Shown here piece after piece: positions 21,050 to 52,690 of a stretch of DNA of 64,000 bases (within the stretch, counting starts at the first letter, position 1; every line of letters begins with the position of its first letter). The stretch is from the NCBI GenBank assembly GCA_051251855.1, contig JBPOGI010000002.1:32001-96000 (forward strand), in the 5' to 3' direction. Both the position numbers and the translations under genes were made by a program. Origin of the DNA: Roseibacillus sp. (GTDB lineage: Bacteria; Verrucomicrobiota; Verrucomicrobiia; Verrucomicrobiales; Akkermansiaceae). Under the pieces are notes generated by a model. It was not told the origin of the DNA. It worked only from the letters and a program-made list of their open reading frames with translations, and did no database searches.

Positions 21050-21140
21050 GGACCAGTGGCTGAGTGGTCGAAAGCGCTCGCCTGCTAAGTGAGTATACTC
21101 CAAAAGGGTATCCAGGGTTCGAATCCCTGCTGGTCCGCCA
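21050..21140 (+). tRNA. tRNA-Ser(GCT)
   Basis: Acceptor stem GGACCAG/CTGGTCC, anticodon loop CTGCTAA, long variable arm, GGTTCGAATCC T-arm, encoded CCA. Confidence 0.97.
21111..21140 (+). repeat. att core, left copy (tRNA 3' end)
   Basis: 30-bp direct repeat with 52346-52375. Confidence 0.92.
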
Positions 21141-21200: not shown

Positions 21201-21221
21201 GTGACACTAAAAGTGACACTG
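21201..21221 (+). repeat. Putative integrase arm-type site, left
   Basis: GTGACACTAAAAGTGACACTG, identical to 52232-52252. Confidence 0.75.
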
Positions 21222-30800: not shown

Positions 30801-33688
30801 TCGCTAGGAAGAGCTACTGGCTTTAGGGCGTAGCTCCTGGCTTCCAAGTCGTTCTCCCGGCAAGCCTTGATACAGCGATCAATAGATTCACGGAAGACGT
30901 GATCCACTCCCTCTAGATTCTCAGGAAGAGCGGCTGCATTGTGGTAGCAACAGGAGACCAGATGCTGCCAACCTCCTTTGAAGGTGAAGGCGAGAGCATC
31001 TCTTTGCTTCTCAAGCTCTGTGCGTGTATTGGAAGCACTCGGCCGTTGGTCAGCCTGGAGATATTGTTTGGCGGGGTATTGGGTGAGTGCATCTAACTCT
31101 TTTCGAGAGACTGAGTAGGAGCAAAGGTTCTTATGCAGATTGGCACACTCTTCCACTGTGGGGAGTTCGCTCGGATCGAGAATGGCATCGGAGTCCACAG
31201 ACACATGCTCTCCTGCCGACTTGCGGGCGGCACGTAGTTGCTCAAAGAACGCGCCATCGATAGTGGTGTCTTCCCAACCGTGTTCGGGATCGAGTTCATC
31301 TTGGAAGAAGGTGTGTTGGTCCGCACTCTCGGCGTCCTCTTCAGCAAGTTGGCGTGGTGAATCACATCCAATGTGTTCTGGGGGAGGGGTGCGGTAGCGA
31401 CTCGCGAGGATGTCGGTTTGCTTTTCGTTGAGAAGAAGCTCCTTGTGGCTCCGCTCGATAACCGCCGCCAATGACTCGACCTCTTTTTCCAGAGTGGTGG
31501 AGTTCAGCTGCAGGATATCGGTCGTGATCCGGTTGACGCTGGACTCCAGCTCCTCTTGCCCTTCGCGGTCACTGTCTAGAAGCAGCCCTGTGAGCATCTG
31601 AATGCCGTCTGGGAGCTGCGATTTGAGGACCTTGAGTGCCGGTGTTTTCTGGGAGGTGACAAGGACTCGTTTTCCGGTGGCGAGGTAGTGACTGATGACG
31701 TTCGCAATGGTGTGGGTCTTTCCGGTTCCGGGAGGCCCTTGTAGGACCACTCCTTCACTGCTTTCTAACTTTCGGATGACCTCGACTTGCTCCTGATTAT
31801 AGGCCTTGGGAAAATAGAGAGAACGGAGTGTGCCCTGGAGGCCGGAATCAGACTCCACGTGAGAGAATCCCCGGAAGGAGTCCTGCGATTCCGGATAGGG
31901 CACCTCTCGTCTGATCGCGATATCGTCCAAGGCGCTGGTGAGGACCCCGTCATTTTCCGCGATGGCCTTCAGCTTCTGCACATCTTGCAGCATGTAGTTG
32001 GCTGAGCGGGTCTGGATCATGACCGCCCAGTCGAGGGTGAAGGTGACAGCCTCGGCTTTGTCCGGCCTGGTCTCGGAGAACGTGGTGCTGCTGTCGATCT
32101 GGCCAGCATCGACCGTCAGAATTTTACGGAGCCGGTCAGTGTCGAATGGGGTCAGGTTTCCTTGCTCTGACTCTGGTGCGAGTTGGGCGCGGATATTCTT
32201 TTCGAACACCGCCGCTCCCTCAGGGAATTCTTCCAGAAAGGCGTGGATGTTGCAGAGAGGAGTTCGGTCGAGGCCTGTAATCTTCAGAGTGAGGCTATCA
32301 GCGCTGCCAACAAATTCGACCGGAATAGCAAGGAGAGGAAAGCGCAGCCGCTCGGGACCAGAGCGATAAGTCATGCCCACCCCCCACACCATTTCCTGTG
32401 GATTGGCTGCCGTTCCGGTTTGGAGCTGCTGACGATAGGAAAAGAGGTCTTGGTAGAGCTTAATGGTCTTGCGCCTTTTCGCTTCCTCTACCGACCAACG
32501 TTCCCAATCGGGAAAGTAACTCTCCCACTCGTGTTGGACCTCAAGGTAGTCCTCCAGTTTGTGCACCACAAAGACGCTTTCTGGAGGAGTGAGCGGCAAT
32601 TCTTTGGCGGGATCATCTTCAGATAGTTCGGCAATCTCCTTCTTCCGCTGCTCAAATTCTTCCCAGAGTAACGCGGTGGCCTCCTCATCCAAGACGCTGA
32701 TTTCCGCTGCCAGTTCCGGAGTCCTGTCAGGATCATCTACCACCATCGTCCAAGCATCCAAGATTTCGGGTAAGGCTGGCGGCTCGATGGGCTTCAGGCG
32801 CTCAATAGACAGCCAGCATGAGGAGTCTGGGTTTTCGTCTCCGAGCAAGATTCCCGGCAGTCCCTCAATGGCCTCGTTAGTTAGGTCGCACCAACGGATG
32901 CGAGAGTCTGCTCGAATGTCGCAGAGAGGAGTCAGGTCCATCTTGTACCACTCTTCGAGAAAGCCGAACATCTTGGAGAGGTTTGGGGCGAGGCCAGGAT
33001 TTTGTTCAGCAGTGGGGGGCATCAGGTCAGTGGAATTTGTGGACTGAGAGGGCTCAGGAGAGACTTCTTTATCGTTTTGGGATGATGAATTGTGCTCTGG
33101 GAGATGCAACGAACCTTTGTCGGTAAGTGTCCACGAATAGTCGGTTTCGTCGATTTTGACGAAACCGCGTGCTTGTAAGTCATAAAGTTCCCGATTGATC
33201 GACTTTTTCTCGTCCTCAAAGAAAGAAGCCATCTCTTTGGCCTTTGTATGTGGGTTCAGGTGGAGAAAGGCAATGATCGCGGTCAGTCGCTCAGCAGTCC
33301 TCTGCTGGTCCGGCGTTGTAGAGGAGCTCTTTTCTGACCTCCATGGGAGGAGGTGCTCGTTCTCTTTGCCGAGCTGAATCCAGTGCGGAGTTGTCTGTCC
33401 AGCTAGAATGGTGGGGAGGTGCTTGCGGAGATTCCAAGCCAAATAGGCCGCCCCCTCTTCCCGAGAGGATACCTCGTCGGGCACTTCAAATCGAATCTCG
33501 GCGAGCGTACGGGAGGTTTGCAGGATTCCCGTAAAGAGAACAGAAGGCTGAAAGTTTCGACCTTGTACTCGAAGGGCTCCCAAGGAGAGGTTCCCAAAGT
33601 CATAGCTCAGTTCAGAGAGATCGTATTCGTCCTGCTCAGTCACCGGCTCGAAGCCAAACTCAGGAAGGAAGGTCCACAAATCACACAT
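27887..33688 (-). CDS. Large SF1 (Upf1/DNA2-like) helicase fused to a Vsr/DUF559-like nuclease, with N-terminal winged helix and C-terminal GreA/B-like domain
   Basis: QGPPGTGKT, IIDEASQ, VGDDKQ, EHFRC, FQGSE, FNVAASRA; nuclease ESPFE, RIDLVV, IECDG, RQRTLERAGW. Confidence 0.85.
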   Translation of the reverse strand: MCDLWTFLPEFGFEPVTEQDEYDLSELSYDFGNLSLGALRVQGRNFQPSVLFTGILQTSRTLAEIRFEVPDEVSSREEGAAYLAWNLRKHLPTILAGQTTPHWIQLGKENEHLLPWRSEKSSSTTPDQQRTAERLTAIIAFLHLNPHTKAKEMASFFEDEKKSINRELYDLQARGFVKIDETDYSWTLTDKGSLHLPEHNSSSQNDKEVSPEPSQSTNSTDLMPPTAEQNPGLAPNLSKMFGFLEEWYKMDLTPLCDIRADSRIRWCDLTNEAIEGLPGILLGDENPDSSCWLSIERLKPIEPPALPEILDAWTMVVDDPDRTPELAAEISVLDEEATALLWEEFEQRKKEIAELSEDDPAKELPLTPPESVFVVHKLEDYLEVQHEWESYFPDWERWSVEEAKRRKTIKLYQDLFSYRQQLQTGTAANPQEMVWGVGMTYRSGPERLRFPLLAIPVEFVGSADSLTLKITGLDRTPLCNIHAFLEEFPEGAAVFEKNIRAQLAPESEQGNLTPFDTDRLRKILTVDAGQIDSSTTFSETRPDKAEAVTFTLDWAVMIQTRSANYMLQDVQKLKAIAENDGVLTSALDDIAIRREVPYPESQDSFRGFSHVESDSGLQGTLRSLYFPKAYNQEQVEVIRKLESSEGVVLQGPPGTGKTHTIANVISHYLATGKRVLVTSQKTPALKVLKSQLPDGIQMLTGLLLDSDREGQEELESSVNRITTDILQLNSTTLEKEVESLAAVIERSHKELLLNEKQTDILASRYRTPPPEHIGCDSPRQLAEEDAESADQHTFFQDELDPEHGWEDTTIDGAFFEQLRAARKSAGEHVSVDSDAILDPSELPTVEECANLHKNLCSYSVSRKELDALTQYPAKQYLQADQRPSASNTRTELEKQRDALAFTFKGGWQHLVSCCYHNAAALPENLEGVDHVFRESIDRCIKACRENDLEARSYALKPVALPSESVDLEELLPPITKAAEGEKPFGLVGRLSSRGLSKAVQAITVRGDAPTGAEDWQDVKRWIELHIAGNQLAKEWNLLADSLSTPKLPTDAGVSVYSNFRPIVKQVEGIWAFSKQELREHLANVGELIDLDQPTDSLLSLSLKKPSFLDSIIASLGLVIGEFDGRAASTERQKLLDLLDGNPNYLAQFDFLKSKLGSSEQELGDLGEEWRSLLNQCSLLHSKIPSLQEIGTLALRLKEAGARKLAVAVTSHVYDEETEDESVLPPRISETWHWAMRKAYLKNIDAKSELLKLNTARLSKEKKLANDYEDLAVKRTWLKLKETFAAKPNLVTALNQFVTHIKRIGKGTGKLAPFHRAEAQKALAQANEAIRCWIMPQWRVSESLPAGFGLFDLVIIDEASQSDLKALPAIARGKKVLVVGDDKQVSPLQVGTRTDAVMALYQRFLKDLPYGSSMTIRDSIYDLASIAYGAASIRLREHFRCAEPIINFSSKHFYDGEIKCLRVPKATERMSPVLIDVYLEGGIRPEGSKTNEAEADYILDEIITLTEDEDFGDRSIGIVTLLGNEQSRFIWDKIQAEISEEIILRHSIRCGDSSTFQGSEFDVVFLSMVNHVSKIAATSVPLAQRFNVAASRAKDRMYLCRSIPLEGLKSTDLRHKLISHFSDPGLKLAGKGREDCESPFEEEIFDFLSTEGYMVSTQIAAAGFRIDLVVEDAGGRRLAIECDGYIAHPEHKWSEDMSRQRTLERAGWSFHRIWGPSYYSDKDSSRSELLQVLKEHGIEQHHDGLASAQGIVEFRHIPAPVEEELFPDDEDETMVEVEVEIEDKSLAEILEEEKEDQASQVTLTTSPAPTSNQSTDDTLHQGSFNNVVDQGTLFETNPTEKEPEKENENHNLIEVGDTVSVKFDDSDEFLTFTIIRDLSSQDGRLLNYKDPIAEVILLSSVHPERKLDFEVNGRTFAVTALKKGQPPKETSTHE

Positions 33689-33690
33689 GG

Positions 33691-34947
33691 TTAGAGAACG
33701 GGATTTGTTTCGGCTTGCTCATGAAGCTGCTCAAGAAGTTTGACGTAAATCATCGCCCGCGAGATTAGTTCTTTGGCAAATTCAGTTCTTTTCTTTAAAT
33801 CAAAAAAATCAGCGATGACGTTGTCGGTCATGACCCAAGGATGTTCTAAGTTGTGGTAGCCTACGGGCCACATTTCGCCGTGCCAAGGAGCTAGCGGATC
33901 GGCCTTGTGGACTTCGTTTTCTTCACTCTCAACGCATAGGAGCTCATCAAGTACAGCCAGAGTAGAAGCCTCTTTTTTGGTTGATTCGCCAATGTTCCAT
34001 TTGGACTCTATCCCGATGACCAGAGCGCTTCTCTTGGCAAAATGAAGAATTACAATTTGATAGCGAGTGGCGGCAAAAGGACCTGAGGCTGGCGATAGTC
34101 TAATTGATCCCAAAGGATCTTTTCCGAACCGATTGTCAATAAAGTTGGCGCGTAGTTTGCCCGGATAGTCAGGTGGAAGTTCTGCAATTAAACTTTCAGC
34201 AAGGAGATCGAGGGCTCTTGCTTTGACTTCCTCAACGCCAGCGTTGAAGTCCGCTCGCATACGAATGAGGTTGGGATTGGCGACGAGGTGATCGGCGATG
34301 TCTTTCATAGCTTGGTGTTCGAGTGTTCGACCGGTAAGGGTCCGGACCAAGTGGCGGTATTGGAGGAGGACTTGGTTTACAGGGATGATTGAGAAGGTTG
34401 CGGATAGACAGCTATCGAGCCAAGGGAGGATATGGTCTCGATAGGAAATACGAAGATAATCAGCTCCCTCGTGGGTGTAAGATTCTTTTCCGTCCAAAGT
34501 GAGATAAATGAGGAGATTGTTTTCTGGATAGTTGTCCTCAAGGTATTTCGCGTAGCGGGCGAGTTGTCTCGGTTGTTCGACTGCATCGATCTTATTTTCA
34601 ATCGCAATGCCCATTTCGGACGATTCGAGGAGGAGATCAATCTGGCCTTGTGCTGTGATAGCTTCTTTGCGGACCTCAAAAGAATCACTCTGAAAGTCTT
34701 TGGGTGCTTCTTTAAGAGAATCGAAGAAGAGGCTGAGAAAGAGTTCTCCGCAATCGTGAGTCCCCAACGGGTTGAGAAGATTATGTATGAAGCGGGTGTG
34801 GAGCCTCACTTCGTCATTCGCCTTTAGGACAGTGGTGAAGACGTTAAAATTAGAATGAGTCGCGCGAGCGCGCTCCTCATTGCGAACTCGCCACTCCTGC
34901 ACCAAGTCAGAGAGTGATGAAAGTTGATTAAAGTCGGCGGTGGTCAT
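33691..34947 (-). CDS. PD-(D/E)XK nuclease (PDDEXK_4-like)
   Basis: FNVF, EVRLHTRFI, LLNP, GQIDLLL, IAIENKI, QLARY, IYLTLDG. Confidence 0.85.
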   Translation of the reverse strand: MTTADFNQLSSLSDLVQEWRVRNEERARATHSNFNVFTTVLKANDEVRLHTRFIHNLLNPLGTHDCGELFLSLFFDSLKEAPKDFQSDSFEVRKEAITAQGQIDLLLESSEMGIAIENKIDAVEQPRQLARYAKYLEDNYPENNLLIYLTLDGKESYTHEGADYLRISYRDHILPWLDSCLSATFSIIPVNQVLLQYRHLVRTLTGRTLEHQAMKDIADHLVANPNLIRMRADFNAGVEEVKARALDLLAESLIAELPPDYPGKLRANFIDNRFGKDPLGSIRLSPASGPFAATRYQIVILHFAKRSALVIGIESKWNIGESTKKEASTLAVLDELLCVESEENEVHKADPLAPWHGEMWPVGYHNLEHPWVMTDNVIADFFDLKKRTEFAKELISRAMIYVKLLEQLHEQAETNPVL

Positions 34948-35009
34948 GATGGGATTGGCTGAGGTCGTAGAGCCTATCGTTTTAAGACGAAGTTTAAGAG
35001 CAAGAGCTG

Positions 35010-35696
35010 TTACAAATGCCCTCCCGGTCGAGGGAGGTCATCCCAATTTCCATCAAAGCAATTTGCCGCTGTGCCTACAAACGCTTCGAAAAATCGTCGC
35101 CGCATATCGGAGTCTTCTTTGAATACTGACATCCAAACGCCAAAAAAACCGTAGCCCTTTGCTACATCCGTGATGGTTTCTCGCATTTCATCAGTGTCGT
35201 TTCTTGTAAGCGCGGCAAATTTTCTGATGGCAAGTTCCCACACTAATTCTCGGTTTGCGAATCGCGCGTCTCGCTCGGCAGGTTGTTTTTCGGGTGGTTG
35301 TCCCGGATGCCGATCTAAACCTACGAGATCGATGAGTTCTACGGCTTTGTCTTTAAGCTCGGAGGATAGGCCATCTGCGGTTCCAATAAGACCGCCTGGT
35401 TGATAGCCGATGGCTCTAAGAGTATTGTCTTTGTCCGGCCAGACAAAGTCGTTGTCGTTTGTGGGTTTTGCTTTCTTTACAGAATTACAACTCTTGCAAG
35501 CCAAGAGGAAGTTGGTCCAATCTTTTTCTCTCTCCTCGTCTAGGCTTTTCGGAGAGACGTGTTCGACAGCAAGCTCGCTTGGGAAATGACGCTCGCAATA
35601 GGAGCAATAACATCCTAGGCGTTCTTCGAGATCTCCAATGGCGTCACCGTAGTGACTGTATTCTCTGGGAGCGCTGCCTCTTTCTACCGGTCTCAT
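35010..35696 (-). CDS. HNH endonuclease (PtuB-like)
   Basis: YCSYCE, VEHVSPK, WTNFLLACKSCN; overlaps the upstream ATPase stop. Confidence 0.85.
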   Translation of the reverse strand: MRPVERGSAPREYSHYGDAIGDLEERLGCYCSYCERHFPSELAVEHVSPKSLDEEREKDWTNFLLACKSCNSVKKAKPTNDNDFVWPDKDNTLRAIGYQPGGLIGTADGLSSELKDKAVELIDLVGLDRHPGQPPEKQPAERDARFANRELVWELAIRKFAALTRNDTDEMRETITDVAKGYGFFGVWMSVFKEDSDMRRRFFEAFVGTAANCFDGNWDDLPRPGGHL

Positions 35697-37168
35697 TGGT
35701 CTTCGTGTTGTAGCTCTTCGGACTTGAGCAATGCATGGAGAGCAGGGTGCGAAGTGAAGGGCTCGGACGCTTCTCGATACGCCAATTTGGCCTCCTTGAT
35801 GCTTTCGTGGTTTTGGGGTTCTTCACGCAGTAGGGAAAAATATCTTGTTGCGGCTTTACTTAGTTCTTCAGCCCGTCTTCCTCGCTGTGGTAAATCGATT
35901 CCTTGAATGTCTTCGACAATGTCTTCGATACTTCTGCTTTCGGCTTCGAAGGAATGAGGTCCAGCCTTGGTTACCTTCATAATTTTTTCGACTGGGACGC
36001 TTTGAATGACGAAGGGGGAATGGGTCGTGGCGATGAACTGGCAGGATGGAAAAAGCTCTTCCAGATAGGGGACGATCATTCGTTGCCATCTCGGGTGAAG
36101 GTGAACGTCGATCTCGTCGATAAGAATGATTGCTGATGATTCTGTGATTGGGGAGGATGGATCAAGAGACAGGTTCCACGCGATGTCAATGAACAGGGAG
36201 AGCAACCGCTGTTCCCCATCCGAGAGTTGACCAATCGGCAAGCTGCCATCGGGTGTGTCGATGACAATCCTTGGCACGAGTTTGACTTCCGCCACATATG
36301 AATCGATGAACGACGGTTCCCTTAGATCTGTAACCTCAAGTGCGACTTGGGCAAGTTGTCTAAAGGGTGTTGATACGATGCCTAGTTTTTCATTGCCCTT
36401 TATAAAACCATCGGCATTTATAGTGATACTCCTTTCTTCAATGCCGTTGAAAACATCGGGATTGAGCTGGAAGATTCTCATCAAGAGTTCCGGCATGTCT
36501 TTGACAAAATGAGCCTCTTCTTTGTCTCCAAGATGTTTTTCATCTACTCTGTTGAGCGAGCAAGAGTAAGCTTCAAACCGCCAATGAAATTTAGTAATTC
36601 GATCAGAAATTCTAGAGAGAGCATCTTCTAGAAAAGCTCGAATTTCAAGGCCACGGACTGAACTCTCGCTAGTAGGGTTGGCAGGCTGACTAACGCGTTG
36701 TGGGCGTTGCTTGGATTCGTGCTCTAGTTGGTAAATTCTTTCCTGAAAATCAATGTTACGGGTCGAGCTTTTATTTTTTGGCGTCCATGGGGGTCTTCCT
36801 CTCAAGTTGTTTACAAGAGCTTCATTCGACCCATAGAAGAGGATCTTTATATCAGATTTGTCTCCTCCACGATAAAGTCGATCACCGAATCGACGCTGGT
36901 ATTGAAAGTCTCGTTTTTGATGATTATCGCCGACCAGAGAAGTTAAAATTTGAAGGCTGTCTTCTCCAAGTCGTATGTCTAAGTTGTTCAACGCATGTCT
37001 TTTTAAAGAGATTTTCCTCGGTGAACCCAAGCACATGAAGATTGAGCGAAGCACGGTAGTTTTTCCAAATCCGTTTTCGCCGACCAAAAGATTGAAGCCT
37101 TTATTAAAACTGTATTTAGCTTCCGCGAACTGTCTCACGTTATTCAATCGAAGTTTTTCAATGTGCAT
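35693..37168 (-). CDS. ABC/AAA_21-type ATPase (PtuA-like)
   Basis: GENGFGKT Walker A, LSDGE signature, LIDEIDVHLHPRWQ, ATTHSP. Confidence 0.88.
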   Translation of the reverse strand: MHIEKLRLNNVRQFAEAKYSFNKGFNLLVGENGFGKTTVLRSIFMCLGSPRKISLKRHALNNLDIRLGEDSLQILTSLVGDNHQKRDFQYQRRFGDRLYRGGDKSDIKILFYGSNEALVNNLRGRPPWTPKNKSSTRNIDFQERIYQLEHESKQRPQRVSQPANPTSESSVRGLEIRAFLEDALSRISDRITKFHWRFEAYSCSLNRVDEKHLGDKEEAHFVKDMPELLMRIFQLNPDVFNGIEERSITINADGFIKGNEKLGIVSTPFRQLAQVALEVTDLREPSFIDSYVAEVKLVPRIVIDTPDGSLPIGQLSDGEQRLLSLFIDIAWNLSLDPSSPITESSAIILIDEIDVHLHPRWQRMIVPYLEELFPSCQFIATTHSPFVIQSVPVEKIMKVTKAGPHSFEAESRSIEDIVEDIQGIDLPQRGRRAEELSKAATRYFSLLREEPQNHESIKEAKLAYREASEPFTSHPALHALLKSEELQHEDQ

Positions 37169-37183
37169 ATTATTGGAGCTGGT

Positions 37184-38514
37184 TTAGATGTTACGGACGT
37201 CGATCTTGCCGGTGACGGCGGCGGAGATGAGGGCGGTCCGGCGTTCTTGAAGGAGGGCGATTTGGGTTTCTGCTTTTGCGTTTGAATCGTCAAACTTTTC
37301 GGTGAATTCATTCAAGTAAGCCAAGATTTCGGGCAGCTCGTCATTGCTAGGAATTGCGATGGGAATATTGCCTAAGTCTTCCATAGAAAGATTTGGCTGC
37401 GCAGCTTGGACAGAATTTAGGCTGATTGAGTTAAGAGCCACATCTGTTCCGAGCCATAAATCCATCCAATGAGAGAAGTGTTTTTTAAAGAGTCGTAGAT
37501 AGCAGACTGCCTGATTTGTGTTGGAAGGTAGTAACTCTCTTTGCAGAACTGCCGATTTTCCAGTGGTGGCTCCTGCTATTACTACAAGAACATCGTTTTC
37601 CTCGAGATTTCCGCGAGAAAGGATCTTATGAGAATTCTGAGAAATGAAAAATTCGGGAGTATTAGAGACACCAGTTGTGGTGATGTTTTCAGCTTTTAAG
37701 AATCTGACTCCTGAGTCAATGAACTCAGCGCCGACCGTCGACGGAGTAGTTCCCTTTGAAATGATTGAGCAAAGGTTCTTTATGCGTTTTACCGACCAAT
37801 GTTCAGGGACTTGGCCGAGCCATTCGATGCCGGAGTCTTTGAGGGGGGCCTGGGGATTGAGGCCTTTGGTGACGGCGTGGCTGATGACGGCTTGGCGTTT
37901 TTCTTTGAGCAGGGCAATCAGCTCTTGCTGCTTCTCGATCAAAAGGTCGATCTTCCCCGTCTCGTGGTCGAGGAATTTGGCGATTTGTATTTGTTCGGGG
38001 AGGGGTGGCTTGGGTGAGTCGAAATTTCCAAGCTCTTCATTAGAGATTTCAAGAAAAGTGCTACCTCGACCGAGAACGTTCAATTTTTCGGAACTCACCA
38101 GCAGGAAGTAGAATAGAAACTTAAAGTCTGTGTTCTTTTCAACAACTAGCGACTTACAGCCTTGGTTTGTGCAAAGGTTGGTTGAAGCGATTCCGAGGGT
38201 TCCGATTGGGGCTCTTGATGAGAGAATTAGAGAACTTTGTGGAACCAGAGATGTCCCACAGGATTCATAACCTTGTTTAGTAATGCTTCGCGCTCCTCTT
38301 GTGATGTAGGGAGTGGAGTCCTTGCCCAAATCAGCAGGTGTTACCCATGGTATGTCACCATCCCAAAACCGAGTAGTATCAGATTTGGGTGTAGAGCCGT
38401 TGTGAAGCAGGCATAGGCGCTTGATCGTTGATGTAATCCAGTGATTAGGAAGCTCCCCCAACCACTCAATCCCCGAATCCTGATACTCTGGATAGGCTTG
38501 ATACCTTCCGGTTT

Positions 38515-38518
<4 letters not shown>
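37184..38518 (-). CDS. hsdS: Type I RM specificity subunit S
   Basis: Two TRDs with repeated [18 protein letters not shown] and [17 protein letters not shown] 38518 overlaps the hsdM stop. Confidence 0.95.
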
Positions 38519-40836
<2,318 letters not shown>

Positions 40837-42853: not shown

Positions 42854-42927
42854 TTCTTTAGTTTGTTGTAGTTGGTAAAAAAATGGGGCGCAGGAAATGA
42901 ATCCCACGCCCCGTTGTTCTTGTTTCG

Positions 42928-43452
42928 TTATGCCGCATCAATCAATCGACCTAACTCGTTTTTCAGGCGGACTTTGTCTTCCAGACGGAGCCGACGTGCT
43001 TGGTTTAATACCGTCGCAAGATTCAGCTTTTGAGGCTTCTTCGTTCTTCCGCGATGGTCGGCTTTAGAAGCCGTTCGTCGCGGTTGTGGTCGCGTCACGC
43101 GTTCCCGAATCGGTGATGCCGGGTCAGGTGCTGAATCAGGGGTGTCAGCCCTCGGTTCTGGTTGCGTCTCCACGACCTCATCTTCCGAGCCAGGGGGGAG
43201 CTGCGTTGGAGTGGTATTGTCCTTCGGATGAAAGACGCTGGCCACTTGGGGAGTGTTCTCTAACACTTGCCTGATTTCCTCTGGGTTCACCAGATAAGGC
43301 TGACGCTCGCCTTGCTGTTCTTTTCTTACCTTATTGCCTTTGGCCCATCTCTTAACCGTGGATTCTGCGCAGCCGTATTCGGCGGCTACTTCTTTACAGG
43401 TAGCCCACTTTGTCTCTTGTGAGGCCGAAGCCTCTTCGTTGGTTGTGTTCAT
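42928..43452 (-). CDS. MerR/excisionase-like HTH protein with low-complexity linker
   Basis: TCKEVAAEYGCAESTVKRWAKGN. Confidence 0.65.
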   Translation of the reverse strand: MNTTNEEASASQETKWATCKEVAAEYGCAESTVKRWAKGNKVRKEQQGERQPYLVNPEEIRQVLENTPQVASVFHPKDNTTPTQLPPGSEDEVVETQPEPRADTPDSAPDPASPIRERVTRPQPRRTASKADHRGRTKKPQKLNLATVLNQARRLRLEDKVRLKNELGRLIDAA

Positions 43453-43572
43453 AATAAAATTCTAAAATAAAATTGAGGGCTCCTCAGATTCTGGGAGGAG
43501 CCCAGTTGGTTTTGAGAGCCCCCCAGCTGGGGCTCTTCGGACGGAATGTCCGATTGGAGGCGTTGCTCCATT

Positions 43573-45977
43573 GTTGGACGCTTCGGACACAACTTACGTC
43601 ATGTCCTCCGCAGAAACCCATCGGGCACCTCTCGATGCAATGGGCTTACTCCAGACGACACCACGCTTACGGATGACAATTCACATGAACGAGTTCTGGG
43701 ACGGAATTGCCGTCCCGAAGAGTGGAGACTTGCTGCATACCGTCGCCTGCTAAGAAGCGTCGTTTGCAGTGCGTGCATTTCCCGAGCTGACGCTTGAGAG
43801 ATGAGCGGTTAATCCCACTGGGTATATTTGGATAGGAAGAGGTTCGCCCCCCCCAGTAGTGCCAATCCCCATCAAAGTATGACCGGGAGATTTGCACCAT
43901 GGGAGGAGACCATGCGGTAGATACGTCAGCCACTTTAAAGAGTGTGACATGTTCACCTGCGGGCGACACGTAAGGGCTTTTAAAAACCCAACTGCGTTCC
44001 CGGTCTTCACCATCGCGTCTCTTCATCGGTTTGCCTTCCTTGTCGCGTTCAATCCCTCCGAAGAGGTTATCCCTGCGCCAAGCGGCGGTCTTATGTTTGA
44101 AGCTCCTACTTCCCCAATGGGAGAGGGCCACATAAATGCGATGATCGACCTTGCTGAATGTTCTCTTTGCATTGCAGTGGCGAAAGTAGTTCGCCCATCC
44201 AGCTTGCTTGGCATTTGTCCGACGGATCAAAGTAGAAACTTTGTCGTCTTGGCCTTTGGACATTTGGTGCCTATGTGCTCCTCTTTGCTTCTTGAGGATT
44301 TTAGTATTCTTGATGTAGCCCCTTATTTCGGTCAGATGGCGGGAGACGCTTTTATCTGAGGGAGTGACGATGAAATAGGGTGGTGTTCCTGGCTGTTTAG
44401 CCGGATCGTTGTATCTAGGCTTGCTGAAGTGTTGGAAGTGGAATCCGAGGAAGGTAAATCCAGCACGGTCTCCGTCCTCCGCTTTCTCAAGCGTGTGCCT
44501 AATTTTGGTTTTGCTAGGGTTCAGTGACAGACTGAATTTGCTGAGATATTCCACGAGGGCTATCTGCGCATCTTTGACGATGTCTTTGTCTTCGTGGAAG
44601 ACAAGGAGGTCGTCGGCATAAATAACCAACCCGGGTGTTGGACATCCTTTGGGGAGGATGAGCTTTTCGTTGATGAAATCGGGTAGCCCGGTCATCACGA
44701 TATTGGCGAGGAGAGGGCAAAGAGGGCCTCCTTGCGGAATGCCGTCTTCTTGTTCTCCATCAAGTGTCACCAGTATTCTGCTGACCGCCTTTCGGATCCC
44801 TCTGGTCGAGTCGATCTTTGCTATCAATGTCTCTCGGTCGATGGAGTCGAAAAATTTAGAAATGTCAGCGTCGAGGACCCACGAAGGGCGCTTCCTGAGC
44901 ATGTTCTCAATTTGTCGTCTGGCATCCTGCTGACTTCGCCCCTTTCTGAACCCGAACATGCGTTTGGGAAAGCGTGCTTCGCTCTGGGGTTCGAGCGCCA
45001 TCCGAATCAGTTCCTGGTGGGCTCTGTCGATCAGGTTAGGGATGCTCAGTTTGCGTTTTTCATTCGTGCCCGCCTTTGCGATCTCGGTGTATCGGGGCGG
45101 GGAAGGCTGGTGCTTTAGAGAGAGCGCGATTGCCATCTCGTAGCATGTTTCCTTGTTGGGATTTTTAAGTCTATCCGGTCCGGCCGTTTTGCGGCCGTTG
45201 TTTTGTAAGCAGACTTTGCGCACAGCCAGCGCGCGTGCGCTGAATGATCGCGTAAGTCGCTTTTGCAATCTTTGTGTTAAATGTGAATTTTCACCGTTTC
45301 GTGTGGCGTGATAAATGGCGCTTTGAATTGTGAAAGCTTCCTGTTGAAGCTCTTCCCAATCTAGCTTGTTCCAATTCTGTGCGGCCTGTTGCCGCGATGT
45401 TTTGTGGTTCATAGAATCGAAGACTGCCTTTTGGTCGTCTTTCCGCGAATTCAGCCTATCCCTTCGATTACCGAAGGGCATTCGCTTGGTCGCTTACCTA
45501 CCCGGGAAGGCATAAGGCTAGGTCCCATCCCTTGCGTCGCCGCGAGGGAAGCCAGTCCCGGTGTCCGAGTTTTCTTGAGGTCTGCGTATGCCGGAAGTCT
45601 TGCGTGCTCCACGCCGCGAAAAGCTCTAGCTGAAACTAGAAACCTGGCGGATAACTGAATCACACATCATCAGCTACAGGTAGGAAGGCATAAGGCCTTT
45701 CCTCTTTTCGGCATTGTTGTTACGACGCTCGATAACACGTTCGCTGTTCGCTCAACTCTTCCGGCGCAAGGTCTGCCCGCTACCCCCAGGATCGCTTCTA
45801 GTGCTAACCCGGAAGGGGCTTTCCTTCGCCTACCGCGCGGCGGCTATCGCGCTCCGTAAAAAGGGGCGTGATAGCTTACCTCAAGAACATCAAGTTCGGG
45901 ATTGGACCGGAACTTGTGGCTCTTTCCTCTTCCCCGACAGAATGCCGGCGAAGCTCCCAGAGCCAATCACGTCGCTT
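43573..45977 (-). mobile_element. Group II intron-like element (CL/IIB type), intergenic, with non-canonical ends
   Basis: DV AAGCCCATTGCATCGAGAGGTGCCCGATGGGTTT (43614-43647), DVI-like stem ending CCAAC, DIII-like GCGAATGCC..GTAAT..GGATAGG, DI elements, d3-like stem-loop 45652-45676; boundaries inferred. Confidence 0.75.
43667..45412 (-). CDS. Group II intron-type reverse transcriptase/maturase with degenerate HNH tail
   Basis: RVT_N (WNKLDW, LAVRKV, GRKTAGPD), VLDADISKFFD, GIPQGG, YADD, FTFLGF, X domain GWANYFR, CxxC and HVNCH; start ATG 45412. Confidence 0.92.
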   Translation of the reverse strand: MNHKTSRQQAAQNWNKLDWEELQQEAFTIQSAIYHATRNGENSHLTQRLQKRLTRSFSARALAVRKVCLQNNGRKTAGPDRLKNPNKETCYEMAIALSLKHQPSPPRYTEIAKAGTNEKRKLSIPNLIDRAHQELIRMALEPQSEARFPKRMFGFRKGRSQQDARRQIENMLRKRPSWVLDADISKFFDSIDRETLIAKIDSTRGIRKAVSRILVTLDGEQEDGIPQGGPLCPLLANIVMTGLPDFINEKLILPKGCPTPGLVIYADDLLVFHEDKDIVKDAQIALVEYLSKFSLSLNPSKTKIRHTLEKAEDGDRAGFTFLGFHFQHFSKPRYNDPAKQPGTPPYFIVTPSDKSVSRHLTEIRGYIKNTKILKKQRGAHRHQMSKGQDDKVSTLIRRTNAKQAGWANYFRHCNAKRTFSKVDHRIYVALSHWGSRSFKHKTAAWRRDNLFGGIERDKEGKPMKRRDGEDRERSWVFKSPYVSPAGEHVTLFKVADVSTAWSPPMVQISRSYFDGDWHYWGGRTSSYPNIPSGINRSSLKRQLGKCTHCKRRFLAGDGMQQVSTLRDGNSVPELVHVNCHP

Positions 45978-46064
45978 GAGTGAAAATTAAAAAATAGGAT
46001 ATGTTAAAGAACAGGGGACTGAAGAGCAGTGCTCTTTCAGCGGGCACTCGGGCCCTAGGTATTG

Positions 46065-46304
46065 TCACGCGTCGCCACCTTCGGCCTGACCATCGAGGTA
46101 AGACTTTAGGCTCTCAAAACACACCAGCCGTCGACCGGTTTTGTGCCCTTTCTTCTTCAGCAGCACCGACTTGATTTTTCGGTTGCCGATGAGCGCATAG
46201 AGGGTGGTTCGTCCGATTCCAAAAAGCTGAACAGCTTCCGGGATGCGGATGTAAACCGGGTCGCGATTGACCGTGGTGCTTTGTGTTGGTTCCGTCGGGG
46301 ACAT
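46065..46304 (-). CDS. Excisionase/AlpA-like HTH protein
   Basis: IRIPEAVQLFGIGRTTLYALI and GRRLV. Confidence 0.85.
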   Translation of the reverse strand: MSPTEPTQSTTVNRDPVYIRIPEAVQLFGIGRTTLYALIGNRKIKSVLLKKKGHKTGRRLVCFESLKSYLDGQAEGGDA

Positions 46305-46611
46305 GGCCAAAGCTGTCGTCGAATCGGAGGTGAATTCAATGGAGAAATGAGCGTGGAGTCCGGCTAACTACCGGATAAAACTGCTTTATCCTTTTTTATC
46401 TTTTCGGGTGGATGTGGCTAATTTTTAGTGGTTTGTGGCTCGGCCAGATTGGGGTTTTCTGATCGAACTCAAAAAGTGTGCCTGCCGGCTCTGAGTTCGC
46501 CGGAGATTGCCCTGTTAGAAACATTTTCCGCCACGCTTTGAGCAGATTGGGAGGGAGAGGAGGCTCGTGAAGCGGCTTACAAGGGGCGGTTGCACCGAGC
46601 TTCGTGGAGCT

Positions 46612-46667: not shown

Positions 46668-47474
46668 CTAATTTGCGATACCAACAAAGCCGTCGCAAAG
46701 GCCATGGAGAGCCTCGCTACGGCGCATTGTGGTTGCTGGATTTTGCTTCTTGTATGCCTCGGTAAAGGCGTTGAAGAGGCTCCACAGATTCCGTGGTCGG
46801 AATTCACCGTGCGATGGTTCACGCCATTCCTTGAGGACTTCAGGGAGCTGGCTTGGAGTGATTGCGTTGCAATCCACAGCTCGGACAACCATGTCGTGTG
46901 CCGCCCAATCGGCGACCAAGGCATTCTTGTATGAGTCGATGCGTTTGTCCAACTTCTCGAATCGGTCTCCGAGTTGCCCGATAGCGCCAGCAGTAAGCTC
47001 TCGTAGATCCCTGTAGGCGTGCCGGGTGTGTTTCCGGCTGATTTTCACCTCACCGCAAAAGGCGAGGTTGTCACAGGTGAAGACCGAGGTGCCAGCGACA
47101 ACGCCAGCAGGAAAGGTCTTATCATGACTATTTCGCAGGCCAACGACCCATGCATAGTCACGCTCATCTTGGCCGAATTGCTTAACTTCCATCACGCCGA
47201 AGTAGCGAGCGCCTTCGTGAGAGAGAGCATGGCTTTCTCGACCGATAGAAAAGCCACAACCTTCGAGCCTGCTTTGCACTTCCTCCAAAAGAGCACGGTG
47301 AGACAAGGGAAACCATGTGTCGGTTCCGCGAGGCGTCTTTACTCCGTAGAGGGTATTTCGGTCGACAAGGTCAGCACCGCAATGCAGCAGCATTCCTTTG
47401 ACTGGTTGTTCTGGGACAGGAGCGACGATGCTGAATGGAGTCGGCTCGCCGGTGGGTAGTGGTAATATGTTCAT
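46668..47474 (-). CDS. DUF932 family protein
   Basis: TWFPLSH, GLRNSHDK, VFTCDNLAF, RKHT, RNLWSLFNAFTE. Confidence 0.8.
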   Translation of the reverse strand: MNILPLPTGEPTPFSIVAPVPEQPVKGMLLHCGADLVDRNTLYGVKTPRGTDTWFPLSHRALLEEVQSRLEGCGFSIGRESHALSHEGARYFGVMEVKQFGQDERDYAWVVGLRNSHDKTFPAGVVAGTSVFTCDNLAFCGEVKISRKHTRHAYRDLRELTAGAIGQLGDRFEKLDKRIDSYKNALVADWAAHDMVVRAVDCNAITPSQLPEVLKEWREPSHGEFRPRNLWSLFNAFTEAYKKQNPATTMRRSEALHGLCDGFVGIAN

Positions 47475-47564
47475 AATTTTTGTTTTGTAGTTTTTAGAGA
47501 AAAGAAAAAGGGCGGCTTCGAAGTGAATCGAAACCGCCCTCATTTGTGTCGTGGTGCTAAGTGC

Positions 47565-48350
47565 CTAACAGGTGCTTTCAGCTCCCTGCCATTTCAGGCA
47601 CTCTTCGCGGTATGCGCACCACGAGCAGTGCATCCCGGGTTGTGGATGGAAGACCCCGTCCGCGATGCCTTGGACCGCAGTCTCAAGCATGGTGATCACG
47701 CGATGCTTCCGCGCTTCGTCGGCGGGCGGTGTGCTAATACGGATCACCGACGGTGTCTTCGTCTTCACAAGAAATACAAGATCGAGCGATGGCGGTTTTT
47801 CACCATTGGCCTCAAGCATGAGCTGGTAGCTCACGAGTTGAAGTTCATGATCGAAAACTGCCTGTGCTGGGTTCGGCTTAGAGGCAGCGGACTTAAAATC
47901 GACAGGCGTAAAGTCGCCCTCAACCAAATCCATCGCCCCCGTTAAAGGCACCGAGAGCCCAGGAATATCTTCCTTGAGAAAGACCTCCACCGCCTTTGGC
48001 TTTTTCTTCAACACTTCGGGGGAAGCGAGATAGGCAGAGATAACACGCTGACCATCAGCCATCGCTTTTTCACGCTTGGTCGAGTCGCCGAAGTTCATAG
48101 GGCCCTCGTCTTGCTCCAGTTGCAGAAAGGCCTCGTCGAAGGCCGTCGCTACGAATTCTGAAGAATCATCCTCGCCTCGCCATCTTGCTAGGTGGAAGGC
48201 TTGCAGAGCTGCATGAATCGCCTTCCCCAGATGGAGCGCAACCGAAGTCGGCTTCTTGATGTTCGCCACGCGCTCAAAGTAGAAGCGCAACGAGCAGCCT
48301 AAATACGATTTGGCTGCCGAGGGGCTAATGTATTCGGGAAGAGTTTGCAT
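47565..48350 (-). CDS. RecB/Cas4-like PD-(D/E)XK nuclease with four Cys (Fe-S type)
   Basis: ISPS and GCSL, GAMDL, VDFKS, QLVSY, HCSWCAYREEC. Confidence 0.85.
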   Translation of the reverse strand: MQTLPEYISPSAAKSYLGCSLRFYFERVANIKKPTSVALHLGKAIHAALQAFHLARWRGEDDSSEFVATAFDEAFLQLEQDEGPMNFGDSTKREKAMADGQRVISAYLASPEVLKKKPKAVEVFLKEDIPGLSVPLTGAMDLVEGDFTPVDFKSAASKPNPAQAVFDHELQLVSYQLMLEANGEKPPSLDLVFLVKTKTPSVIRISTPPADEARKHRVITMLETAVQGIADGVFHPQPGMHCSWCAYREECLKWQGAESTC

Positions 48351-48883
48351 CACGCTGCCCTTCTACGATTGCCCCCGGAATAAGCTGATTTGCTCCGGGG
48401 ATTTCCGCCGCCTTTTGGCTTTCCGCCATAGAGGTCCAGCAACTCGTCAATGAGTCCCGACGCCTCAAGCTTGTTCAGACGTTTTACTCCCGTGCCGAAG
48501 CGTTCGACCGCGAGGGCCTCGATGTCCTTTTTGTTCAGCTGGTTCTCGTCCACGATCTTGAGGATTAAGTCGCGCTGTTTTTCGGAACAGCTCCAGCCCG
48601 ATCTGCTTTGCCATTGGGTGATGTTTGTAGGCTCCAGATCAGAAGTCGCTTCCGATGCTGAAGAGGAATCCGGTTGGTCCATTCCATAAGTGGAATTCGG
48701 GACGAATCCTGTCTCCAGAATCTGCCGATCCACATTTTCCTGAAGCAAATGGTAGAGACTTTCAGACTCCTGTTCGAAGTCATCAGTTGTCATCAACTCC
48801 GTCTCGACTGAGACTGAGTATTGGTGTGAGGAGTAGCCCGGAAGTCCCAAGCGTTTTGAATAGTTTGCAATAAGTTTGATCAT
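48350..48883 (-). CDS. Hypothetical protein
   Basis: 177-aa ORF translationally coupled to the nuclease; SEKQ and EASGLIDELL helical tail. Confidence 0.7.
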   Translation of the reverse strand: MIKLIANYSKRLGLPGYSSHQYSVSVETELMTTDDFEQESESLYHLLQENVDRQILETGFVPNSTYGMDQPDSSSASEATSDLEPTNITQWQSRSGWSCSEKQRDLILKIVDENQLNKKDIEALAVERFGTGVKRLNKLEASGLIDELLDLYGGKPKGGGNPRSKSAYSGGNRRRAA

Positions 48884-51058: not shown

Positions 51059-52216
51059 TCAGTTGGAGAACCGAGGTAGGGCCGCAGAAGCTTTCTCCAT
51101 CGCTTCGTCGCCGAGGCGGACGTAGACTCGGTGAACGTCGACAGAGTCGTGGCCAACCCACTCTTGAACGACTGCTGCCGGGATGCCTTGAGCATGCAGG
51201 AATGAGACAGCTGTGACCCGGAGGCTGTGAAATGAGAGCTTAGACGCTTGTCTGACGCGATCGCGTCCGTTCTTGGTTGCGCGATGGCTGACCTTCTCTC
51301 GAAGCCCGCAATCGGCAAGAAGGGAGCTAAATTGGTTTGAGAGCGTTGAGGATCCGTTTTCTTCGTAGAGAGCCCCGAGCCTAGGGTGGACCAGCTCTGG
51401 ATGTGAATTCTGTTGCTTCTGGATATTGGCCATGAGGTCATCTGAGATTTTAATTTTCACTGACCGAGAGGTTTTTCGAGTACGGATGCTTAGGCTAGCG
51501 TTTGGGATATCAATGGTGGACCAACGCATAGTGGCAAGGTCACCTAGGCGCTGCCCGGTGTAGATGCCAAAAAGGACCATGCTCTTCCATTCACCGTCGA
51601 TGTGACGCAAGAGGAGTCTGACTTGCTCTTCAGTGAAGGCCTGTCTTTCATCTGCGTTCTTAGAGGGTGCCGCTTTGCGGGAGAGTTTCAGGTTGGCGGT
51701 TGGTTCCTCTAGGCAGAGACCTTCTTTTTGAGCTGCCTTGAAGAGCGCTCTCAAGGCCTTTGTTTTGTTGGTGACAGTGGACTCGGCTACCCGTTCTCTA
51801 AGGTGGTTTCGGTAGCGGGCGATATCGGAGCTGGTGATGTCGGCGAGATCTTGGTCGGCCTGGTCTGCGAGCCAGTCGACAAAGTCCGTGAGGGATTTTT
51901 TGTAGGCTTTGTAAGTGGACTTGCTCGTTTCCCCGGCCTTGCGTTCTAGGTAGAGGCTGAGGTAGCGGCGAACTGTCATCGTGGGAATCAGGTCGCCCGT
52001 GAGTCGTTGATGAAGATCGGAGATCACTTCTTTAACCTGTCGGGCTGAGCGTCGTATTTTGGAAGCGTCCTCAAACTCTTCGGCGAGGCGCTGAGCTTGG
52101 CGGCGGTTCTTATGTTTAGCCGGGAGCTTAGTGGATCGTTCGCAACGTTTTCCGTTCTCATCATACCAAGCGGCGATGAAATATTTTGAGTTCGGTTTGG
52201 TTCGTAGGTAGGCCAT
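51059..52216 (-). CDS. int: Tyrosine integrase
   Basis: TGQRLGDL (R), KT (K), FHSLR (HxxR), VGH and Y; SAM-like core; adjacent to att. Confidence 0.95.
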   Translation of the reverse strand: MAYLRTKPNSKYFIAAWYDENGKRCERSTKLPAKHKNRRQAQRLAEEFEDASKIRRSARQVKEVISDLHQRLTGDLIPTMTVRRYLSLYLERKAGETSKSTYKAYKKSLTDFVDWLADQADQDLADITSSDIARYRNHLRERVAESTVTNKTKALRALFKAAQKEGLCLEEPTANLKLSRKAAPSKNADERQAFTEEQVRLLLRHIDGEWKSMVLFGIYTGQRLGDLATMRWSTIDIPNASLSIRTRKTSRSVKIKISDDLMANIQKQQNSHPELVHPRLGALYEENGSSTLSNQFSSLLADCGLREKVSHRATKNGRDRVRQASKLSFHSLRVTAVSFLHAQGIPAAVVQEWVGHDSVDVHRVYVRLGDEAMEKASAALPRFSN

Positions 52217-52231
52217 TGAAGGGGGACGTTG

Positions 52232-52252
52232 GTGACACTAAAAGTGACACTG
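52232..52252 (+). repeat. Putative integrase arm-type site, right
   Basis: GTGACACTAAAAGTGACACTG, identical to 21201-21221. Confidence 0.75.
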
Positions 52253-52345: not shown

Positions 52346-52375
52346 TCCAGGGTTCGAATCCCTGCTGGTCCGCCA
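52346..52375 (+). repeat. att core, right copy
   Basis: 30-bp duplicate of the tRNA-Ser 3' end. Confidence 0.92.
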
Positions 52376-52690
52376 GACCCCAATCCAGCTCCGCTGGGTT
52401 GGGGTCTGGCTTTTTCAGGAGGGCCGAGAAACCCACCCGAGCCTCCGGCGAGACGGGTTCGAACGCCGTCTTTTCTTTAGAAAAGAATCATTACAAAAAG
52501 AACTCCGGAGGAGGAGTTCTGCACATCGCGTGACCCGAGCGGAGCGAAGATAATCCCTGCTGGTCCGCCAGACCCCAATCCAGCTCTGCTGGGTTGGGGT
52601 CTGGCTTTTTCAGGCAGGGCCGAGAACACATCCGGTCCCTCGGCGAGACGGGTTCGAACGCTGACTTTTCCTTAGAAAAGAAACCATTGC
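52357..52690 (+). repeat. tRNA-linked tandem repeat (195-bp period, second unit partial)
   Basis: AATCCCTGCTGGTCCGCCA + long hairpin + GGCGAGACGGGTTCGAACG starting at 52357 and again at 52552. Confidence 0.85.
52372..52415 (+). terminator. Probable original tRNA terminator (duplicated at 52567-52610)
   Basis: 18-bp stem GCCAGACCCCAATCCAGC/GCTGGGTTGGGGTCTGGC followed by TTTTT. Confidence 0.75.

Follow-up and report, generated by a model that had tools for sequence, protein, structure and literature searches.

A reverse transcriptase-ribozyme unit behind xis in integrative islands of Verrucomicrobiae, likely descended from a group II intron that no longer splices or homes

The 64,000-nucleotide stretch of Roseibacillus sp. 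DNA analyzed here (contig JBPOGI010000002.1, positions 32,001 to 96,000; from here on the window, numbered from its first letter) holds on its minus strand a reverse transcriptase (RT)/maturase gene embedded in a structured RNA of the group II intron type, the whole lying between the small excisionase-type gene xis and a gene for a helix-turn-helix (HTH) protein (Table 1). Comparison with relatives reveals a lineage with a fixed gene order, a conserved RNA fold, shared sets of kept and of changed motifs, purifying selection and a single copy. It is a real, undescribed and selected variant of chloroplast-like (CL)/IIB intron descent, and it is likely the descendant of a group II intron that became fixed behind the xis gene of integrative islands, where it would no longer splice or home. 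The parts that serve exon finding and the second splicing step are changed, those that serve the first step and DNA synthesis are kept, and signals outside the RNA (boxA, the HTH gene and the terminator) travel with it, a pattern that fits selection by the island and not homing.

An endonuclease-dead RT clade and its conserved RNA

A preliminary description of this DNA had pointed to an intact RT open reading frame (ORF) with YADD, followed by an HNH tail that keeps its zinc ligands and lacks the catalytic motif, and both statements hold. The ORF encodes 581 residues (a longer 604-residue frame from an upstream ATG is also listed), and in its tail the ligands CxxC..HxxC are kept and the catalytic E-x-D-H is missing. 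The protein scores 219.6 bits against TIGR04416, the group II intron model, for a cut-off of 300, and lies far below all cut-offs of the retron and defence-associated RT (DRT) models. Its AlphaFold model has a mean pLDDT of 88, being group II maturases (8fli, 6me0) the best fold matches. A protein search gives 30 relatives at 38-62% identity, none with Pfam HNH, and the named matches include cultured relatives, two Roseibacillus species; canonical CL group II relatives are found at 32-36% identity. In a FastTree phylogeny of 125 sequences, with 17 canonical matches omitted for size, the window RT falls within a monophyletic endonuclease-dead clade of 71 proteins (support 1.0) that is nested in the CL class and divides into 35 core and 36 outer members. 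Among the proteins having CxxC, the HNH E-x-D-H is present in 52 of 54 canonical proteins, 1 of 35 core members and 2 of 34 outer ones, while YADD is kept in 33/35 core and 36/36 outer members; these counts do not rely on the endonuclease labels of the tree, five of which are false positives. Moreover, core proteins carry a basic insert in the thumb and an insert in the D domain, both absent from canonical proteins. Values of dN/dS between 0.12 and 0.22 are obtained in six of six pairs, similar across domains, with dS saturated for the pair formed by the window and G005.

Thirteen loci with 5' flanks, from Verrucomicrobiae genomes and metagenome contigs, could be compared (window, G005, G304, G396, G102, G160, G162, G483, G731, L034, L035, L037 and L061). 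The RNA has six domains in linear order, DI to DVI, with the RT encoded inside DIV, and its 5' boundary rests on a conserved CGAC and the basal stem of DI. Folding of DV-DVI (z=-4.0) and of the 5' RNA (z=-3.7) is better than that of all shuffles. The consensus fold of the 5' part was built on eight relatives, leaving out the window and G005 for poor alignment; in it 88.5% of the cells are paired and 79 of 119 pairs show a change in each of their two strands, compared with about 41 in shuffles and 23-31 in slid controls, a count that leans toward structure because the structure was derived from the same alignment. For DV-DVI of eight core members, 98% of the cells are paired and 13 of 27 pairs are compensatory. 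Also, the d3 stem is kept, with covariation in seven of its eight pairs. Rfam gives in the window only a weak D1-D4 match (E 0.54) and nothing at gathering score; Intron_gpII reaches 29-38 bits in 5 clade loci out of 14 loci scanned, the gathering score being 40.

The elements kept are the AGC triad, the second bulge C, the G of the junction between DII and DIII (J2/3) and the GNRA loop of DVI. The start AAGCG at 45977 and the 34-nt DV (43647-43614) with its AGC triad, CC bulge and GAGA loop are as first described. The 3' end is not. The preliminary description had closed the unit at 43573 and seen no A at -7/-8, which is true only with that end; the conserved end, GA-N-RCG-UC in 8/8 aligned core members (G162 omitted from this count for its truncated DVI), stops at 43577 in the window, the UC being followed by AAC in only two of the eight aligned relatives. 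With this end an invariant A (43583) stands at -7 in all eight, in an internal loop and not as a single bulge. A 6-nt spacer is described as the rule for bacterial IIB1 introns (PMC9294222), and the outer members G483 and G731 show the same -7 register with an AC end.

In favor of an ordinary intron in decay are the RT score below the TIGR04416 cut-off and the lack of an Rfam match at gathering score in the window. This explanation is hardly credible, since the same deviations recur in relatives at ~40-60% protein identity, together with compensatory base changes and a dN/dS of about 0.2, and shared deviations under purifying selection already contradict decay. The deviations are those of a lineage and not of one copy, nor do the close homologues turn out to be canonical introns scattered over diverse sites. 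The earlier inference of repurposing rather than decay survives in its main line those refuting conditions that concern homologues, shared deviations and selection. Not supported are a missing branch A, a boundary backed by EBS1 (see below) and, as judged by synteny, a link to a defence operon.

As a separate observation, a lineage-specific T-loop-like hairpin (45891-45915) and a GGA in the coordination loop (45611-45608) occur together in 10 of the 13 loci and are both absent in the other three (by eye); they could possibly form a new tertiary contact at the position of EBS3.

Exon recognition and the boxA leader

None of the 13 loci starts with GUGYG, the starts being AAGCG in eight, AAUCG in three, UAUCG in one and CUGCG in one; the 17 canonical relatives used for comparison, picked by their 5' motif and thus a biased set, start with GUGCG or CUGCG. 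The DV bulge is CC in 9/9 core members, whereas the outer four have AC, AU or UC. By eye, J2/3 reads GU in 9/9 core members with both ends and GG in L061; the outer three have GA, as do all 17 canonical RNAs. Two extra pairs are formed under DV by the junctions J4/5 and J5/6, one of them covarying (A-U/U-A, 5 to 3). In a IIB crystal study, these same residues, the A of J2/3 and those of J4/5 and J5/6, are reported to rearrange for exon ligation, the second step (PMC6224600).

The pairing of exon-binding site 1 with intron-binding site 1 (EBS1-IBS1) is perfect in 8/15 canonical relatives (p<0.0001) and in 1/13 clade members (p=0.66), p values that serve as guides because kin are not independent. 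In the clade, cognate EBS1 pairing is absent at shifts from -3 to +3 (p 0.12-0.98), no cognate site is found within 100 nt upstream (p=0.53), and no cognate signal for the d3 loop (p 0.12-0.86) emerges when a pairing partner is sought upstream, within the RNA itself or in the 3' extension. The match of five out of six positions between the d3 loop and the flanking TCACTC, once taken as support for the boundary, is present in the sequence, but non-cognate combinations average 4.88 of 6, so the match is at chance level and gives the boundary no support. EBS3-IBS3 fits the 43577 end in 4/8 core members (by eye), which is not significant. Finally, the Id2 CCAAAAGG hairpin is found in 14/15 canonical RNAs and in 5/13 clade RNAs (four by pattern, with L035 added by eye), its region being deleted in G396, G102 and G160.

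A specialized intron that still splices and moves, homing downstream of xis/boxA and relying for site recognition mainly on the protein (thumb and D-domain inserts) or on a 3' extension, is quite unlikely on these data: no cognate EBS1 was found at any tested boundary, and the specialized groEL intron of PMC12584367 is described as keeping canonical tertiary contacts. It would nonetheless account for the six domains, the -7 A and the active-site RT being kept, along with a terminal C that could form the pair with the gamma G, and for the diversity of the xis neighbors. Specialized IIB1 lineages at conserved sites do exist and are reported as efficient retrotransposons (PMC12584367), and introns with shifted 5' sites or a domain VII are known (PMC4424553).

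We consider very unlikely an immobile regulatory intron that would set HTH expression by cutting or splicing the xis-HTH transcript, the RT being a maturase only, even though the unit forms part of the HTH gene's leader, flanked by boxA and the 3' hairpins. Maturase-only proteins usually lose YADD; here it persists in 69/71 proteins, selection on the RT domain equals that on the remainder of the protein, and exon pairing is lacking. A precedent would be C.te.I1, a bacterial intron with a cellular splicing role (PMC4024640).

Upstream of the RNA, the motif G-H-TCTTT-N-ACA occurs at ~30-75 nt in 9/13 members, and it was not found upstream of 37 other loci scanned. This motif is also present in 12/12 rRNA leaders of five family genomes, at 240-300 nt from the 16S gene; a stricter pattern caught only two of these leaders, and a close pattern has 39 sites in the 4.96-Mb genome. 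We take this motif to be boxA, and it would act here as a signal for Nus antitermination and RNA folding. Nus factors are reported to block Rho termination and to help rRNA folding (PMC5725501). A -35 box was also considered for the motif and rejected, since its spacing to the RNA varies over the range given and it matches the rRNA leaders. No text joining boxA, antitermination and a group II intron was found in a full-text literature search.

Gene order in the islands

No host ORF is broken by the unit, which lies between xis and the HTH gene as first reported. A small xis-like ORF is directly upstream in 13/13 loci (five of them, the window counted, by phmmer with the window xis at E<0.01, and the rest judged from alignment). 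The HTH gene follows in 9/13 by profile, weakly in G731, and by its start in L034; the contig of L061 stops inside the RT. A hairpin similar to the terminator-like one of the window is present in G005, and other folded members also have hairpins in the region of the 3' array, with sequence that looks different. The window island is bounded by a repeat of the 3' end of tRNA-Ser, and tRNA genes flank the islands in G396, G102, G162, G160 and G731. The cargo downstream of the unit differs in every relative examined.

Among 401 family genomes, where a scan with the single RT protein gave no match and an alignment-based scan succeeded, the clade RT is present in seven, and the HTH gene in the same seven and in G137, which has a lone unrelated 64-aa xis. 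The island of G137 (L163 1501-2746) is of another type, with a phage-type replication initiator directly after xis, in the slot of the RT unit. The 177-aa gene marks related islands in 62/401 family genomes, and both the clade RT and such an HTH gene are absent from 20 regions so marked. A second island in the window's own genome (G000 C6 ~215000-245000), with integrase, DUF3102, DUF5131, the 177-aa gene and the PD-(D/E)XK nuclease, has no RT, HTH or boxA unit. A class sample of 401 genomes adds two members; no member was found in a phylum sample of 300 genomes, in viral contigs or in plasmids (best 34% identity). The DNA contigs show no joint across the unit and no excision joint, and contigs drop rare forms.

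These distributions also weigh against a still mobile intron. No empty xis-boxA-HTH allele was found in the 401 family genomes or in the 20 sister-island regions, as far as an insensitive HTH profile can tell, no second or ORF-less copy is present in the own genome, and the HTH gene and boxA, although outside the intron, travel with it.

That the unit would be a replacement of a replication gene is unsupported, since the RT-less sister islands are also without one: no primase, replicase or relaxase appears in 80 of 115 picked ORFs (10 of the 20 regions). The G137-type initiator family is absent from four RT genomes and is broken and far from the RT in G396, and a search for the G137 initiator protein itself gave no match in five further genomes, of which three lack the RT.

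A different domesticated use would be an anti-phage system of retron or DRT type, in which the RNA would serve as scaffold and template, possibly with a dead core, the cDNA as sensor or toxin and the HTH protein as their partner. The RT under selection, the structured RNA and the one co-inherited protein would agree with it, as would the defence cargo of the islands, for example Septu and type I restriction, and domesticated RTs are described as often defensive (PMC8632793). We judge it unlikely, given that the RT is outside the retron and DRT families with intron maturases as best folds, and that the aligned core shows no variation in the triad, the bulge C or the -7 A, none of which would be required of a mere scaffold. 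Also, the co-orientation with defence genes noted in the preliminary description is real, but the proposed link to a defence operon is not supported by synteny, the unit sitting in the excision operon closed by a terminator-like hairpin after the HTH gene, with variable cargo behind it.

Several observations weigh against a domesticated, non-homing unit with a working core. Loss of the endonuclease alone is described as common among mobile introns (PMC4424553). The J2/3 GA is reported to be needed for catalysis (PMC6224600), so that GU could mean a dead core, and DVI is truncated in G162. The outer members have J2/3 GA and AC-like ends, and in two of them (L037 and L058) no bulged A is seen by eye, so that the catalytic pattern is not uniform. 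The boxA is imperfect in L061 and missing in G396, L034 and G160. Several unrelated types are represented among the upstream xis genes, as might also be seen if the cassette had moved, and in G483 a DUF5131-like gene (by eye) stands where the HTH gene is expected, with no HTH gene present. The HTH profile, to which five of the seven HTH-positive genomes supplied sequences, misses the G731 homologue; being insensitive, it could miss empty alleles with a divergent HTH gene, and their absence is only moderate evidence. Moreover, as the RT-less sister islands indicate, the RT is not simply standing in for a replication gene. With these points included, we hold it probable that the element is domesticated and non-homing, whereas for a catalytic core that is still active the chances appear even.

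Other observations concern the islands themselves. The 177-aa protein (48350-48883 in the window, and in 61 other family genomes) marks a common Verrucomicrobiae island family with genes for PD-(D/E)XK, DUF3150, AAA and WGR-ligase proteins, in which no gene for replication or transfer could be recognised. An inverted repeat upstream of xis (46330-46400, minus strand) is conserved with G005 (L002 540-570) and is a possible operator for the HTH or xis protein. The defence cargo of the window (27887-40836) comprises the M, S and R genes of type I restriction, interrupted by a Septu-like PtuAB, together with a PD-(D/E)XK nuclease (PDC-S26), a DUF262-type protein and a helicase-nuclease. Just beyond the right attachment (att) site (52357-52682) lies a pair of 131-nt direct repeats that are 87% alike, and a 21-bp repeat within both island ends (~21201-21221 and 52232-52252) probably corresponds to arm-type integrase sites. 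RT-bearing islands have at one end unannotated proteins with no useful Pfam or PHROG match. Finally, a split RT beside a Cas1-like gene (by eye) in L227 4800-6700 (G306) is unrelated to the clade.

Table 1. Features of the RT-ribozyme unit and its island in window coordinates (other loci are named where they apply)
Feature	Position	Strand	Basis or remark
tRNA-Ser(GCT), integration site of the 31.2-kb island	21050..21140	+	ARAGORN
att core, left copy, 30 bp	21111..21140	+	direct repeat identical to 52346-52375
End proteins, 480-580 aa	window 21297-22733; L148 116-1588; L149 15197-16741; L261 1361-2869		
Intrinsic-terminator-like hairpin closing the unit after the HTH gene	42885..42912	-	
HTH gene, 174-aa xis/MerR-like protein travelling with the RT	42928..43452	-	
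3' hairpin array between DVI and the HTH gene	43474..43570	-	conserved with G005
DVI with GNRA loop, candidate branch A 43583 (-7), corrected 3' end UC at 43577	43577..43611	-	
DV region including two extra basal pairs between J4/5 and J5/6	43612..43650	-	
RT/maturase ORF, 581 aa from ATG at 45412, CL class	43667..45412	-	YADD; Pfam RVT_N/RVT_1/GIIM
5' ribozyme part, DI-DIII and 5' strand of DIV, start AAGCG	45436..45977	-	consensus fold of 8 relatives
J2/3, GGU in place of GGA	45496..45498	-	
d3 hairpin, EBS1 position	45643..45680	-	stem kept, loop unmatched to flank; helix 15
Lineage-specific hairpin, 7-nt T-loop-like loop (bounds approximate)	45891..45915	-	read from sequence; helix 4
rRNA-type boxA	46002..46013	-	motif match to rRNA leaders
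Hairpin ahead of boxA, presumed boxB-like position	46019..46040	-	sequence
xis, excisionase-type small HTH gene, upstream neighbor	46065..46310	-	HTH_17, TIGR01764
Island core genes: 177-aa unknown, PD-(D/E)XK nuclease, DUF932	46668..48883	-	
Island tyrosine integrase	51059..52216	-	Pfam Phage_integrase
att core, right copy	52346..52375	+	direct repeat

Proposed role and comparison with known systems

Among domesticated cases, a product serving the island cycle and one serving defence seem equally probable. For the first, the following sequence of events can be proposed from the arrangement of the unit. It would be co-transcribed with xis, and boxA would recruit Nus factors that protect and fold the 550-nt untranslated RNA. 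The RT, translated from DIV, would then bind this RNA, and the core could still reach the first-step (branching) state, with no exon ligation and no reverse-splicing into a matching target. The RT would make a partial copy of the RNA, with the branch A or the 3' hairpins providing the primer in the manner of retrons. Finally, the product would act with the co-inherited HTH protein in timing the excision or in maintaining the excised circle. That the RT-ribozyme particle of the xis operon branches or self-primes, and that its cDNA is used with the HTH protein in the excision cycle, is a plausible proposal to which we give somewhat less than even chances. A further step is doubtful: the lineage would be a new RT-ribozyme class, with a branching-only ribozyme folded by the rRNA Nus machinery, an RT whose primer or cDNA starts replication of the excised island or controls excision, and a freed d3 loop that is possibly a guide in trans.

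A full-text literature search, with most subscription papers and supplements outside its scope, found no description of the lineage, and RT catalogues may list the clade proteins as ordinary CL introns. Reviews picture RT domestication as beginning with the loss of the intron RNA (PMC8632793). A lineage that has given up exon recognition but retains an active-site RT together with the ribozyme core would then stand, as a living intermediate, halfway from selfish introns to machines of the retron or spliceosome kind. Two questions become testable with it, namely the role of a group II core without EBS1 and whether changes in J2/3, J4/5 and J5/6 uncouple branching from ligation. Also, an rRNA-type boxA ahead of a ribozyme is a use that we found undescribed in the literature searched. 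Should the RT prove to make a defined product, or the RNA to branch without ligation, the unit would be categorically new.

By sequence, tree and fold, the nearest known systems are the mobile group IIB introns with CL intron-encoded proteins, with which the clade shares an RT-X-D-Zn protein in DIV, a six-domain RNA, the AGC triad and DVI. It differs from them in the absence of GUGYG and AY ends and of EBS1 pairing, in the CC bulge and the J2/3 GU, and in the dead endonuclease, the protein inserts, the fixed synteny and the upstream boxA. Specialized IIB1 lineages of the EcKTE56.groEL type are also single lineages in a conserved genomic context; however, that intron is described with canonical tertiary contacts, an endonuclease and high mobility (PMC12584367). 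Altered boundaries and a structured 3' extension are likewise reported for fungal rRNA IIB1 introns, C.te.I1 and domain VII introns (PMC4424553, PMC9294222). In these sources, the IBS1-EBS1 pairing of introns whose splice sites are shifted is altered yet still there, whereas in the clade none is found within 100 nt upstream and the RT is intact.

Domesticated group II-like (G2L) RTs resemble the clade in being non-mobile, intron-derived and placed among conserved gene neighbors (PMC8632793). They are defined by a missing intron RNA, and the clade does not fall under this definition because it keeps the whole fold. Circularly permuted group II RNAs are another ribozyme variant thought to have a non-canonical role; as described in PMC8637638, they have D5-D6 before D1, carry no ORF and keep EBS1-IBS1, whereas the clade is linear, encodes an RT and is unpaired. 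Finally, retrons and DRT systems combine, like this unit, an RT, a structured non-coding RNA and a partner protein. In this case the likeness is one of functional analogy only, the RT clade and the RNA being unrelated to theirs.

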